Positions 52,599 through 57,760 of a stretch of 64,000 nt of DNA are shown here, in pieces (position 1 is the first letter of the stretch; each line of letters begins with the position of its first letter). The DNA is from a virus (taxonomy: Duplodnaviria > Caudoviricetes). Both the position numbers and the translations under genes were made by a program. A model generated the notes under the pieces. That model had not been told where the DNA came from and ran no database searches. It saw only the letters and a list, made by a program, of their open reading frames with translations. The stretch lies in IMG/VR virus record IMGVR_UViG_3300010340_001122; one strand, given 5' to 3'.

Positions 52599-52667
52599 AA
52601 TCTATATATAAAAAAAAATTGTAAAAAATCAAAACAAAGGAGTATATTTGTAATATATAATAAATAT

Positions 52668-52739
52668 TGCGGGGTAGAGCAGAGGCAGCTCGTTAGGCTC
52701 ATAACCTAAAGGTCGGTGGTTCGATTCCACCCCCCGCTA
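52668..52739 (+). tRNA. tRNA-Met(CAT), initiator-like
   Basis: TTAGG-CTCATAA-CCTAA anticodon arm, GGTTCGATTCC, unpaired 1:72 (T/T). Confidence 0.92.
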
Positions 52740-52746
52740 CAAAACT

Positions 52747-52774
52747 AAAACCACTAACAATAGTGGTTTTTTTT
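52747..52774 (+). terminator. Intrinsic terminator after tRNA-Met
   Basis: AAAACCACTA-ACAA-TAGTGGTTTTTTTT. Confidence 0.88.
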
Positions 52775-52821
52775 ATTTTCATTTATTATATAGGGAGTGA
52801 AACGGAATTTATATATACCTT

Positions 52822-54393: not shown

Positions 54394-54882
54394 ATGAAAA
54401 CAATCAAAATTTTGATGATGGCACTAATGATGTGCTTAACAAGTTTATCTTTTGGACAATCGACAGGTGATAGTTCTCATTTGAGGATAAATGAAATTTG
54501 TCAAAGTTGTATTATAAGATCTGAGGATTCATTTATATCTGATTCACTTATTACTTTGAAAACTAATGATTATGTTGAATTTATAGATGTTGCGAAATAT
54601 CCTTATATTAAGGTTAGAAAGGACAATATTATTGGATTTTTAAGTGTTGCTTATGTTAATAATAATATTCATCCGCAGTTTTCTAAAGAAGTTGAAAAAA
54701 ATCATTTAGAATCACAAAAAAGTATAAGAGAAAATAGAGAGAGAAATCCAGATAGTTATTTCAGACACGTAACTTCTGATGGTGATGTTTATGAAATAAA
54801 AACTTGGTACAATGGTAATAGATATACTACAAAGACTTTTATCAATGGTAAGTTAGATAGTGAGTCAAATGGATACTTTTAA
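54394..54882 (+). CDS. Secreted protein, SH3-like segment
   Basis: Signal peptide MKTIKILMMALMMCLTSLSFGQ; YIKV.....IGFLS..YV. Confidence 0.7.
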   Translation: MKTIKILMMALMMCLTSLSFGQSTGDSSHLRINEICQSCIIRSEDSFISDSLITLKTNDYVEFIDVAKYPYIKVRKDNIIGFLSVAYVNNNIHPQFSKEVEKNHLESQKSIRENRERNPDSYFRHVTSDGDVYEIKTWYNGNRYTTKTFINGKLDSESNGYF

Positions 54883-54933
54883 AAAGGAGAGAAAACTTTT
54901 TTAATATATAATAATATAATTTTTACAAAAATA

Positions 54934-54964
54934 TTTGGAGATTTAAAAAATCTTCGTATATTTG
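54934..54964 (+). promoter_or_regulatory. Bacteroidota-type -33/-7 promoter for leader 1 / tRNA array 1
   Basis: TTTG-N19-TATATTTG. Confidence 0.8.
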
Positions 54965-55003
54965 TAAAACAAAACAAAACAAAACAATTTAAAAATAGAA
55001 ATC

Positions 55004-55084
55004 ATGGCAACTTTTGAAACATATTATTATGAAGCGTATGAGGAACACTCAGCGACTGGCAATACTATGTTCGTGAAAAGTTGA
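55004..55084 (+). CDS. Leader peptide 1 (Tyr/Glu-rich) MATFETYYYEAYEEHSATGNTMFVKS
   Basis: 26 codons, 4 TAT + 3 GAA + 1 GAG within codons 5-14; A-rich 5' UTR; followed by terminator. Confidence 0.85.
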   Translation: MATFETYYYEAYEEHSATGNTMFVKS

Positions 55085-55112
55085 TATAGAATATTAACTA
55101 AAAACGCAAAGT

Positions 55113-55148
55113 AACCCAGTCATTCAATAAAAAATGACTGGGTTTTTT
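55113..55148 (+). terminator. Attenuator terminator 1
   Basis: AACCCAGTCATT-N8-AATGACTGGGTTTTTT; 5' arm can alternatively pair with GACTGG 55054..55059. Confidence 0.9.
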
Positions 55149-55161
55149 GTTTTAAATATAT

Positions 55162-55253
55162 TGGGGTATAACGGCAGGGCCACGTAAAGGCCTGACAGAG
55201 TAAAATAAGCCGTATGGATTACCTGTGAGGGGGTTCGATTCCTTCTACCTCAA
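55162..55253 (+). ncRNA. Non-canonical tRNA-like RNA, GTA (Tyr) anticodon, no D arm, long variable arm
   Basis: TGGGGTA/TACCTCA acceptor, GGGCC-ACGTAAA-GGCCT, GGGGG-TTCGATT-CCTTC. Confidence 0.7.
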
Positions 55254-55261
55254 CTAAATAT

Positions 55262-55333
55262 GGTCCCATCATCTAATGGTTAGGATACAAGACTTTCAAT
55301 CTTGAAATGCGGGTTCGATCCCCGTTGGGACTA
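55262..55333 (+). tRNA. tRNA-Glu(TTC)
   Basis: CAAGA-CTTTCAA-TCTTG; full cloverleaf. Confidence 0.92.
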
Positions 55334-55344
55334 CAAAAATATAT

Positions 55345-55428
55345 GGGAGAGTAACCGGTAATTGGTAGCCGCGCGGACTGTAAATCCGCTCTCATTTGAG
55401 ACTGGGGGTTCGAGTCCCTCCTCTCCCA
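55345..55428 (+). tRNA. tRNA-Tyr(GTA)
   Basis: GCGGA-CTGTAAA-TCCGC; long variable arm. Confidence 0.92.
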
Positions 55429-55434
55429 CAAAAT

Positions 55435-55508
55435 GCTCTTGTCGTCTAACGGTAGGACTCCGGTTTTTCAAACCGATGTAGATGCGGGTTCGATTCCCGT
55501 CAAGAGTA
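55435..55508 (+). tRNA. tRNA-Glu(TTC)
   Basis: CGGT-TTTTCAA-ACCG; GCTCTTG/CAAGAGT acceptor. Confidence 0.85.
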
Positions 55509-55513
55509 CAAAT

Positions 55514-55574
55514 GGGATATGTCGTCACAAGGGGTCTGTAAAACCCCTCAGAGGTTCGATTCCTTCATATCCCA
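55514..55574 (+). ncRNA. D-armless 61-nt tRNA-like RNA, GTA (Tyr) anticodon
   Basis: GGGATATG/CATATCCC, AGGGGT-CTGTAAA-ACCCCT, GAGG-TTCGATT-CCTT. Confidence 0.7.
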
Positions 55575-55580
55575 CAAAAT

Positions 55581-55624
55581 GGTCCGCCACGGAGAAGACA
55601 CGGGTTCGAATCCCGTACGGACTA
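55581..55624 (+). ncRNA. Acceptor + T-arm minihelix (tRNA-Glu-like remnant)
   Basis: GGTCCG/CGGACT, ACGGG-TTCGAAT-CCCGT; no D or anticodon arm. Confidence 0.6.
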
Positions 55625-55631
55625 CAAATAT

Positions 55632-55705
55632 GGCCCTGTCGTCTACGATGGCTAGGACATCACCCTCTCAAGGTGAAGAAGGCGGATCGACACCGCTCAG
55701 GGCTA
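55632..55705 (+). tRNA. tRNA-Glu(CTC)
   Basis: TCACC-CTCTCAA-GGTGA; atypical T loop ATCGACA. Confidence 0.88.
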
Positions 55706-55716
55706 CAAATAACTAT

Positions 55717-55802
55717 TGGAAGGTGGCAGAGTGGTTAAATGCGCTTGACTGTAAATCAAGTCTCTTCGGAGTACGGGGGTTCGAATCCCTCCCTTCCAAC
55801 CA
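55717..55802 (+). tRNA. tRNA-Tyr(GTA), CCA encoded
   Basis: CTTGA-CTGTAAA-TCAAG; variable arm CTC-TTCG-GAG; ends ACCA. Confidence 0.95.
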
Positions 55803-55821
55803 ACCAAAATAACGATTGATT

Positions 55822-56895
55822 ATGAAAGGTCTTCAAAGATTTCCAAATATATTCACACTACCAAATAGAAAACTTAGAATTAAATTTGGAATAGATCCAA
55901 CATCTGATAAATTACATTTAGGTCATTTAATTCCTTTACAGATTGTAAAAGAATTTAAAGATAGAGGTGACCAAATTGATATTGTAATTGGTACATTTAC
56001 TGCTCAACTTGGTGATCCAAGTGGTAAAAACTCAATGAGACCAATACTTTCTTTCAATCAAACCCTAAAAAACTCAGAGTCTGTAATTGAACAAATTAAA
56101 AGAATCTTAGGAAATGATGTCAATATACATCTTAATCATACATGGTTTGAGAACATGTCAATGATAGAGATGATGAATTTAATGTCAAAATTTACTGTTG
56201 GTAATTTACTTAATAGAGATTCTTTTCAAAATAGAATTAAGGAATCTAATCCTATTGGGATGCATGAATTAATGGTTCCAATTTTACAAGGACTTGATTC
56301 TGTATTTCTTAAATCCGATGTTGAGATTGGTGGTTCAGATCAACTTTTTAATTTCAAAATTAGCCGTGAACTTCAAGTTATTTCTGGTCAAGAACCAGAG
56401 AATTGCTTGTTAGCTCCTATTATTAATGGCACCGATGGGAGAAAAATGTCTAAAACATTTAATAATTGTATATTTATCAACGATACTCCTCAAGATGTTT
56501 TTGGTAAGTGTATGTCTATTTCAGATGATACAATGGAAGAATGGTCTCAAATATTTTTAATTGATTCAACCATTACACATCCGATGCTTAAAAAGAAAAA
56601 ATTGGCACATAAAATTACACATTTAATTTGGGGAGAGGATTTGGCAAATAGTGCCATGAATCATTTTGAGACTGTTATTCAAGGTCGAAATATTCCAGAT
56701 GAAATGCCTGAAACCAATGATAGAAATCTAATTAATGTTGTTAAAATACTAAGAAATACTTCTATTAACCAAAGTAGGAGACTTCTTGAGTCAAATGCTG
56801 TAAAAGTTAACGGTGAAGTTGTTAATAGTAATATTGAGTTATCAATTGGTGATGTTGTGAAAGTTGGCAAAAAAGATTTTGTAAAGATTGTTTAG
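55822..56895 (+). CDS. tyrS: Tyrosyl-tRNA synthetase
   Basis: KFGIDPT..LHLGH, GDPSG, LQG.D, GGSDQ.FN, KMSKT, C-terminal S4 domain. Confidence 0.93.
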   Translation: MKGLQRFPNIFTLPNRKLRIKFGIDPTSDKLHLGHLIPLQIVKEFKDRGDQIDIVIGTFTAQLGDPSGKNSMRPILSFNQTLKNSESVIEQIKRILGNDVNIHLNHTWFENMSMIEMMNLMSKFTVGNLLNRDSFQNRIKESNPIGMHELMVPILQGLDSVFLKSDVEIGGSDQLFNFKISRELQVISGQEPENCLLAPIINGTDGRKMSKTFNNCIFINDTPQDVFGKCMSISDDTMEEWSQIFLIDSTITHPMLKKKKLAHKITHLIWGEDLANSAMNHFETVIQGRNIPDEMPETNDRNLINVVKILRNTSINQSRRLLESNAVKVNGEVVNSNIELSIGDVVKVGKKDFVKIV

Positions 56896-57555: not shown

Positions 57556-57563
57556 AAAAATTA

Positions 57564-57595
57564 TTAGGAAGATAAAACTTTTTTATATATATTTG
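57564..57595 (+). promoter_or_regulatory. Bacteroidota-type promoter for leader 2 / tRNA array 2
   Basis: TTAG-N20-TATATTTG. Confidence 0.7.
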
Positions 57596-57617: not shown

Positions 57618-57695
57618 ATGAAAGCAGTTAATAACATATCAATCATAGGGAACGGCGCGATAGCGGGCGGTAGACCCATTATGCTGATTGGTTAA
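57618..57695 (+). CDS. Leader peptide 2 (Ile/Gly/Ala-rich) MKAVNNISIIGNGAIAGGRPIMLIG
   Basis: 25 codons; 3 ATA, 5 Gly, 3 Ala; A-rich 5' UTR; followed by terminator. Confidence 0.85.
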   Translation: MKAVNNISIIGNGAIAGGRPIMLIG

Positions 57696-57722
57696 GTATT
57701 AACTCTTTCATAAAGAATACTT

Positions 57723-57756
57723 AAAAACCCAGTCAGTAAATTGACTGGGTTTTTTT
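57723..57756 (+). terminator. Attenuator terminator 2
   Basis: AAAAACCCAGTCAG-TAAA-TTGACTGGGTTTTTTT; 5' arm alternatively pairs with CTGATTGG 57684..57691. Confidence 0.9.
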
Positions 57757-57760
57757 ATTT

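Follow-up and report, generated by a model that had tools for sequence, protein, structure and literature searches.

Putative leader-peptide attenuation of a tRNA array and tyrS in a Caudoviricetes phage

Organization of the locus

The IMG/VR virus record IMGVR_UViG_3300010340_001122 (Duplodnaviria; Caudoviricetes) is represented here by a stretch of 64,000 nucleotides (the window), AT-rich phage DNA of about 27% GC that also carries genes for a DNA polymerase, a helicase and a ribonucleotide reductase. Within this window, a short open reading frame (ORF) followed by an intrinsic terminator precedes an array of tRNA genes and tyrS, which encodes a tyrosyl-tRNA synthetase (TyrRS), an arrangement considered here as a candidate transcription attenuator. 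In 5'-to-3' order and on the plus strand, the element comprises a promoter, an A-rich 5'-untranslated region (5'-UTR), the leader ORF, the terminator, the tRNA array and tyrS.

The leader ORF (55004-55084), identified from the sequence and a list of ORFs, starts with ATG at 55004, ends with TGA at 55082-84 and encodes, in 26 codons, the peptide MATFETYYYEAYEEHSATGNTMFVKS. Its control block (55016-55045) holds four Tyr codons (all TAT) and four Glu codons (three GAA and one GAG) within 10 codons, in the series GAA ACA TAT TAT TAT GAA GCG TAT GAG GAA. Among the 391 short ATG-initiated ORFs in the six frames of the window, no other exceeds four Tyr plus Glu codons per 10 against the eight found here, and the binomial probability of eight such codons in a single 10-codon window is 2e-6, given a background Tyr plus Glu frequency of 12.5%. 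An initial annotation, made from the letters of the stretch and its ORFs, had described this leader as part of an attenuator, and direct reading of 54400-56200 found its coordinates for the ORF, the control codons, the helices and the terminator all correct.

Pattern matching predicts a Bacteroidota-type promoter upstream of the leader (54934-54964), with a -33 element TTTG (54934-37), a 19-nt spacer and a -7 element TATATTTG (54957-64). The arrangement TTTG-19 nt-TATATTTG is presumably of the Bacteroidota sigma-A type, for which we take the consensus to be TTTG/TAnnTTTG. In five relatives (see below) the promoter block 54934-54964 is nearly invariant, whereas the flanking DNA varies. The 5'-UTR that would follow (54971-55003, with its start inferred) reads as A-rich and devoid of a Shine-Dalgarno sequence, and A-rich UTRs without Shine-Dalgarno sequences are typical of Bacteroidota-type translation initiation. 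Additionally, most relatives have a conserved motif, (G)GAGAG(A)AAACTTTTTTAATATATA, 5' of their leaders; in the window it is found at 54884-54912, about 45 nt 5' of the host-type promoter, and at 57563-57590, where it overlaps the promoter of a second element described below. This motif could serve as a second promoter, specific to the phage, or as some other signal.

The first product downstream of the terminator is a tRNA-shaped RNA of 92 nt (55162-55253), recognized by folding, whose acceptor stem and T arm are clean but whose core is atypical, with a 4-bp stem and a 7-nt loop, ACGUAAA, that possibly presents GUA together with C33. ARAGORN called it under relaxed settings only, and its match to transfer-messenger RNA ends is weak (12.5 bits); the RNA is conserved at 3372-3466 of the relative L120, a 642-kb contig whose TyrRS is 85% identical and whose leader and array are almost identical to those of the window. 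It is followed by tRNA-Glu (TTC; 55262-55334), tRNA-Tyr (GTA; 55345-55429), a further tRNA-Glu (TTC; 55435-55509), an internally deleted tRNA-Tyr-like gene with a GTA loop, no variable arm and a reduced D arm (55513-55574), an internally deleted tRNA-Glu remnant that consists of the acceptor stem and T arm only (55580-55625), tRNA-Glu (CTC; 55632-55706) and tRNA-Tyr (GTA; 55717-55802). The L120 counterpart of the deleted tRNA-Tyr-like gene (L120 3824-3915) is about 30 nt longer and is likewise not called a tRNA by ARAGORN, and that of the Glu remnant is a full-length tRNA-Glu (L120 3921-3996). The last gene, tyrS (55822-56895), scores 275 bits with TIGR00234 (cut-off 114), contains the Pfam domains tRNA-synt_1b and S4, and starts 19 nt past the last tRNA, with neither a terminator nor a promoter in between.

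The T-tract of the terminator is separated from the first RNA gene by 14 nt, the spacers within the array are at most 19 nt long, and no further terminator-like site is found in the array except one tRNA anticodon arm. Since these spacers are too short for internal promoters, the array and tyrS would be transcribed only through the terminator. The leader thus stands, as had been noted initially, upstream of Tyr and Glu tRNAs and tyrS, and the genes behind it (two tRNA-Tyr, three tRNA-Glu and tyrS) serve the supply of the amino acids that it would sense. The finer proposal that the presence of both GAA and GAG mirrors the TTC and CTC anticodons downstream holds in the window but follows no consistent rule in relatives; in L045, for instance, the leader contains GAG and only TTC tRNAs are detected. 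Elsewhere in the window, within 52640-52775, a tRNA-Met gene (52668-52740) lies between a TAnnTTTG promoter and a terminator (52747-52770) of its own and lacks a leader ORF, so gating of this kind is not universal among the tRNAs of this phage.

Mutually exclusive RNA structures

The RNA transcribed from the leader region can be divided into segments whose predicted pairings exclude one another. Segment 1 (55002-55042), defined from the minimum-energy fold, is the 5' half of a leader hairpin and holds the control codons. Segment 2 (55048-55090), which includes GACTGG (55054-59), TACT (55063-66) and CGT (55072-74), is a potential partner of either segment 1 or segment 3, and the latter (55104-55124) includes ACG (55104-06), AGTA (55110-13) and the 5' arm of the terminator with CCAGTC (55116-21). 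The intrinsic terminator itself (3:4; 55113-55148) consists of a 12-bp stem, AACCCAGTCATT/AATGACTGGGTT, an 8-nt loop and a T6 tract (55143-48).

In the 1:2 hairpin, the outer helices are formed by CAACTTTT (55008-15) with AAAAGTTG (55076-83) and by AACATA (55018-23) with TATGTT (55066-71); to these two helices, which were already recognized in the initial annotation, folding adds an inner one between 55033-42 and 55048-57 that directly sequesters GACTGG. The alternative 2:3 structure is built from GACTGG (55054-59) with CCAGTC (55116-21) and TACT (55063-66) with AGTA (55110-13), its full pairing being GACUGG/CCAGUC, UACU/AGUA, UG/CA and CGU/ACG, and it encloses a small spacer hairpin (55079-55099) with a predicted energy of -4.6 kcal/mol.

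For 54985-55155, the predicted fold of lowest energy combines the 1:2 hairpin (55002-55090) with the terminator (z = -5.0 against shuffles). When segment 1 is omitted, 2:3 becomes the minimum-energy fold (-20.3 kcal/mol, z = -4.3). Computed on one RNA, the energies are -21.2 kcal/mol for 1:2, -20.3 kcal/mol for 2:3 and -17.3 kcal/mol for the terminator stem. Predicted folding therefore agrees with the earlier proposal of three mutually exclusive helices, which are of similar strength, and the antiterminator (2:3), on whose energetic competitiveness that proposal had been made to depend, has a computed stability comparable to that of the terminator.

The effect of ribosome position was modelled by folding the nascent RNA up to the terminator loop with a 30-nt ribosome footprint masked. 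With the A site on any of codons 1-12, which include all four Tyr codons, the 5' arm of the terminator is sequestered with a probability of about 1, and none of 100 shuffled spacers matches the observed sequestration of the arm.

Conservation and codon-to-tRNA matching among relatives

The core of the terminator, CCAGTC..GACTGG, occurs twice in the window and in none of 100 shuffles of it. Its second copy belongs to a sister element (57619-57760) with a 25-codon leader, MKAVNNISIIGNGAIAGGRPIMLIG, in which Ile (ATA), Gly and Ala codons abound. The sister terminator (57726-57760) has the same core as the first, CCCAGTC..GACTGGG, and the sequence CUGAUUGG (57684-91) is complementary to CCAGUCAG of this terminator. 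The RNAs encoded behind it are an Ile-UAU-like RNA, three Gly tRNAs and Ala tRNAs. The two elements share the promoter type, the terminator core, the ORF length, the distance from stop codon to terminator and a leader written in the amino acids of the tRNAs that follow, whereas they differ in the amino-acid set and in the sequences of segments 1 and 2.

Relatives were gathered by the terminator core alone, by combined YYY-E and core patterns in viral contigs, and via TyrRS homologues. Matches to the pattern TATTATTATGA..CCCAGTC were kept only if they had the full terminator core and a tRNA gene just downstream; most of them were discarded as chance occurrences in AT-rich DNA. A single-protein TyrRS scan of viral contigs found nothing. 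Against deposited phages, blastn with the leader region returned two short matches only, to the 735-kb LR756501 and LR756503, and with the leader of L011 it returned none. The resulting comparison set comprises 26 distinct leaders with the common terminator core CCCAGTC..GACTGGG.

In the set gathered by the core alone, a short ORF ends 15-50 nt 5' of the terminator in all 13 cases with tRNAs downstream, compared with 19 of the 121 cases without tRNAs (Fisher 9e-10). The distance from the end of the ORF to the terminator core is 23-32 nt in all relatives with downstream tRNAs, except for L058 (13 nt), and the length and position of the leader ORF are conserved in all relatives. The amino acids encoded by the leaders change together with the tRNAs behind them. 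Glu and Tyr tRNAs are found behind Tyr/Glu (YYYE) leaders, of which there are eleven distinct versions, and Ile-UAU, Gly and Ala tRNAs behind Ile(ATA)/Gly/Ala leaders. Likewise, a leader with five consecutive Gln residues (MKMITQQQQQ...) lies before three tRNA-Gln genes, and a Pro/Gln/Lys/Tyr/Thr/Gly leader (MKMYTTYQKQYQPKGGKPYG...) lies before Pro, Gln, Lys, Tyr, Thr and Gly tRNAs. L121, L105 and L086 each have a single merged Tyr/Glu/Ile/Gly/Ala leader before a single merged array. Specifically, L121 (the 709-kb contig JAWVHH010000009.1, TyrRS 67% identity) has codons for Tyr, Glu, Gly, Ala and Ile(ATA) together in one leader, MNTLNYIGYIAEGGYEAGSFLIDLVMPMRKV, and the same terminator core is followed there by Glu, Glu, Tyr, Gly, Gly, Ile-UAU-like, Ala and Ala RNAs. 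In this contig (L121 830-5080), the merged array is followed by three synthetase-related genes, with Pfam tRNA-synt_2b, with tRNA-synt_2c (AlaRS-related) and for a TyrRS, and the amino acids of the leader may thus match the enzymes of the unit too.

Across 14 representative leaders, 115 leader codons match the array behind them, compared with 62 +/- 9 after permutation, and 0 of 20,000 permutations reach 115 (P ~5e-5, a value that, like those of the other permutation tests given below, is optimistic because related loci are counted as independent). The codon-to-tRNA match first noticed in the window is thus repeated in relatives with different sequences and different amino-acid sets. Additionally, the Gly/Ala leaders form GC-rich islands within a genome of 27% GC, which argues for selection on codons and against compositional drift.

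Two published phages extend the comparison. In the 735-kb huge phage LR756501.1 (L280 1394-1530, at about 174,080-174,213, minus strand), there is a Met/Gln/Glu-rich leader, MNFRIINMIQEQMQQIQNLIGGTISY, and CUGAUUGG can pair without mismatch with the arm CCAAUCAG of the terminator, whose core has compensating changes on both arms (CCCAATCAG/ATGATTGGG); the genes behind it encode a Glu-like RNA and then Met, Gln and Gln tRNAs. In the Caulobacter phage phiCbK (NC_019405.1, 47300-52700; L282), annotated rho-independent terminators lie directly before three tRNA blocks. One of these terminators follows an annotated 45-aa coding sequence, D865_gp335, in which Ser, Leu, Pro and Lys account for 24 of the 44 residues that follow the initiator Met, and precedes tRNAs for Pro (two), Lys (two), Leu (three) and Ser (two). 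The Glu/Asp block of phiCbK is less convincing, as the preceding 20-codon ORF has two Glu and one Asp codons only.

The complementarity of the segments was assessed across the family by a fold-anchored test in which each segment was paired with its own partner or with the partners of other loci. Segment 2 pairs with its own terminator arm at -304 kcal/mol, against -241 +/- 8 kcal/mol with the arms of other loci (P ~5e-5), and it tracks the variable nucleotides beside the conserved core, as seen in the pairs GUCAGACU/AGUCUGAC (L147 clade), AUCAGAC/GUCUGAU (L045), GAAUGGCUUGG/CCCAGUCAUUC (L105) and AGGUUGAC/GUCAAUCU. Similarly, segment 1 fits its own segment 2 better (-400) than those of other loci (-289 +/- 13; P ~5e-5), and this fit accounts for the recurrent N-terminal peptide motif xTxxNI, which reflects the RNA helix AACAUA/UAUGUU. 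The best partner of the terminator 5' arm lies within the last 33 nt of the ORF in 24 of the 26 leaders, and a hairpin enclosed by 2:3 is predicted in nearly all of them. When a ribosome is stalled on a matched codon, the predicted probability that the arm is sequestered averages 0.85 over the 26 leaders, compared with 0.47 for shuffled spacers; when the ribosome has reached the stop codon and the RNA upstream of it is masked, this probability is mostly below 0.3.

Within the close clade (five sequences, 93% identity), the control block shows a single synonymous change, GAG to GAA, whereas the flanking codons change non-synonymously. The 2:3 structure remains 99% paired and includes one compensatory pair, C55072-G55106, which is U-A in L043, L120 and L151. 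The 1:2 hairpin is 92-98% paired, and the terminator also shows one compensatory pair. Covariation, which had been suggested initially as a means of verification, is thus found as an own-partner fit at the level of the family, but within the close clade it amounts to a single compensatory 2:3 pair, with controls that are not significant.

Proposed mechanism and alternative explanations

From the parts of the element, which are conserved and for which alternative pairings are predicted, and from the agreement of codons and tRNAs among relatives, we consider it likely that the element is a ribosome-mediated (leader-peptide) transcription attenuator that makes expression of the Tyr/Glu tRNA array and tyrS depend on the speed of Tyr and Glu decoding. 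From this evidence we infer translation of the leader, coupling of ribosome and RNA polymerase, the choice between termination and read-through, and the physiological trigger. Transcription would start at the host-type promoter, and the 26-codon leader would be translated while being made. With an ample supply of charged Tyr and Glu tRNAs, the ribosome would run to TGA 55082 and cover the 3' part of segment 2, or would leave and allow 1:2 to re-form; in either case nothing would keep segment 3 from pairing with segment 4, and RNA polymerase would stop at the T-tract (55143-48). If Tyr or Glu decoding is slow (codons 5-12), the stalled ribosome would cover segment 1 and leave segment 2 (GACTGG, TACT and CGT) available, so that 2:3 would form ahead of the transcription of segment 4 and the terminator would not. 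The polymerase would then continue through the genes for the tRNA-like RNA and for the Glu and Tyr tRNAs and through tyrS, whose products would relieve the stall, closing a negative feedback loop. The initial description of the element as an attenuator is therefore supported by the in silico analysis and by the comparison with relatives.

Several results weigh against this mechanism. Once the complete terminator is present, it forms with a probability of about 1 at equilibrium for every ribosome position. A thermodynamic-switch reading was dropped because equilibrium folding with the complete terminator gave no switching at any ribosome position; the switch could only be kinetic, and the device can work only if 2:3 forms first and persists. 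In ribosome-free nascent RNA, moreover, 2:3 together with small 5' hairpins (-27.2) is predicted to be more stable than 1:2, and termination without translation would then need kinetic trapping in 1:2. The proposed logic of ribosome positions stands for a stall on codons 1-12, which frees segment 2 in the footprint scan, but not for the last two Glu codons, where sequestration of the arm falls to 0.81 and then 0.30 and is lost beyond, since a ribosome stalled there would sit over segment 2. The initial annotation also held that a ribosome reaching TGA would melt 2:3. A ribosome on the stop codon indeed covers the inner 2:3 helices, but these alone, as GACTGG lies 23-28 nt upstream and outside the 30-nt footprint, and exclusion of 2:3 by this ribosome is an assumption of the model. 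Among the relatives, the Tyr/Glu leader of L056 has a weak antiterminator (P = 0.59) that is no better than shuffles. Sequences of the close clade do not differ in the outer 2:3 helix, the shuffle control for 2:3 is not significant (51/500), and 1:2 shows no compensatory pair and has uncompensated mismatches in L151. The optimism of the permutation P values noted above counts on the same side.

Two of these results, a strong terminator that is always favoured at equilibrium and an outer 2:3 helix that is invariant in the close clade, would also be expected of a plain leaky terminator, which would end a small leader transcript or act as a brake to keep a low constitutive level of tRNAs, with an ORF that is irrelevant or untranslated and senses nothing. 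Such a terminator would leave unexplained why a short ORF lies at a fixed distance from 13 of the 13 tRNA-linked terminators and from 16% of the others, why its amino acids shift with the tRNA set, and why segments 1, 2 and 3 stay complementary despite sequence divergence, and we regard it as improbable. Terminator read-through is commonly used by phages for temporal control, and the element could alternatively be a timing device, at which an antitermination factor of phage or host (a protein or a modified polymerase) reads through at a set stage of infection, with the ORF being no sensor. The conserved motif GGAGAGAAAACTTTTTTAATATATA upstream of the leaders could mark phage-specific transcription of this kind. 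However, no factor-binding element was identified in the analysis, and both the codon-to-tRNA matching and the placement of segment 2 within the 3'-terminal part of the ORF (24 of 26 leaders) would be purposeless in a timing device, to which we give the same low credence as to the leaky terminator.

The conservation of the ORF in relatives could instead mean that the 26-residue peptide is a functional micro-protein and that the terminator merely ends its gene. Between clades, however, the peptides have hardly anything in common except the control residues and the N-terminal xTxxNI motif, which coincides with the helix AACAUA/UAUGUU, and their composition follows the tRNAs and not a protein fold, so a micro-protein seems very unlikely. 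Least likely of all, and barely credible, is direct sensing of tRNA by the leader RNA in the manner of a T-box and without translation: tyrS and tRNAs are kinds of genes under T-box control in Firmicutes (PMC1262725), but neither a T-box nor any other Rfam cis-regulator matches at the gathering threshold or at E<=5, several amino acids are encoded per leader, and every leader has an ATG-initiated ORF whose stop position is fixed. None of the four alternatives accounts for the tracking of tRNAs by leader codons or for the complementarities that are kept between the segments.

If the element is indeed a leader-peptide attenuator, it can be asked what the sensing would be for. A more speculative extension, which we put forward tentatively and hold to be rather less than an even prospect, is that the attenuators are the sensing half of a phage counter-defence against depletion of particular tRNAs. 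The host, or the shut-off imposed by the phage itself, would destroy or deplete tRNAs (by anticodon nucleases that target tRNA-Tyr or tRNA-Glu, for instance), and a stall on the matching leader would switch on only that block of replacement tRNAs, here together with tyrS and the RNA at 55162-55253. If this were true, the phage would possess a per-codon, on-demand repair of the translation apparatus that goes beyond a supplement for codon usage.

Relation to known regulatory systems

Phage tRNA genes are usually viewed as constitutive supplements for codon usage or as spares against host tRNA nucleases, and to our knowledge their regulation is essentially undescribed. In full-text literature searches, within the collection searched, no leader-peptide attenuation was found described for tRNA genes or in phages. 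Additionally, the Rfam leader families (Trp, His, Leu, Thr, Phe and others) have no match in 54900-55830, either at the gathering threshold or at E<=5, and the same holds for the T-box with its specifier-loop-containing stem I and T-box sequence.

T-box riboswitches, such as that of Bacillus subtilis tyrS, resemble the phage element in adjusting the capacity for tRNA charging to demand through conditional read-through of a terminator. In contrast to the phage element, which lacks T-box features, they bind uncharged tRNA directly and need no translation.

Classical attenuators before aminoacyl-tRNA synthetase genes are known from Escherichia coli pheST, and candidates have been described for trpS and leuS in Streptomyces (PMC1262725). 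In these cases, too, a synthetase gene lies behind a leader rich in cognate codons, as tyrS lies here behind four Tyr codons. The phage element differs in that its synthetase gene is the last of a unit that consists mainly of tRNA genes, and in that its leader would also sense Glu, an amino acid that has no synthetase here.

The closest mechanistic parallel is offered by the enterobacterial attenuators trpL, hisL, pheL, leuL, thrL and ilvL, which likewise combine a short leader with clustered control codons and mutually exclusive 1:2, 2:3 and 3:4 helices, among which the position of the ribosome decides; thrL and ilvL also sense more than one amino acid. In trp, the antiterminator is less stable than the terminator, which makes the control kinetic. 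The differences lie in the regulated genes, which are biosynthetic enzymes in enterobacteria and tRNA genes plus a synthetase in the phage; in the Bacteroidota-type promoter and the UTR without a Shine-Dalgarno sequence; in the location of segment 2, which overlaps the last codons of the ORF in the phage element and comes after the stop codon in the enterobacterial attenuators; and in the lack of sequence homology, as judged from the Rfam leader families.

The proposed mechanism is therefore a known one (trpL, hisL, thrL, ilvL), whereas tRNA as the class of regulated genes is new as far as the literature searches show. The combination of a short ORF, a terminator and a tRNA array provides a signature for annotation, in which the composition of the leader predicts the tRNAs that follow. 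If the attenuator reading is true, the phage would gauge the speed of decoding per codon group and make exactly the tRNAs that are short, here together with a synthetase, and a textbook mechanism would extend from the supply of amino acids to the decoding machinery itself.

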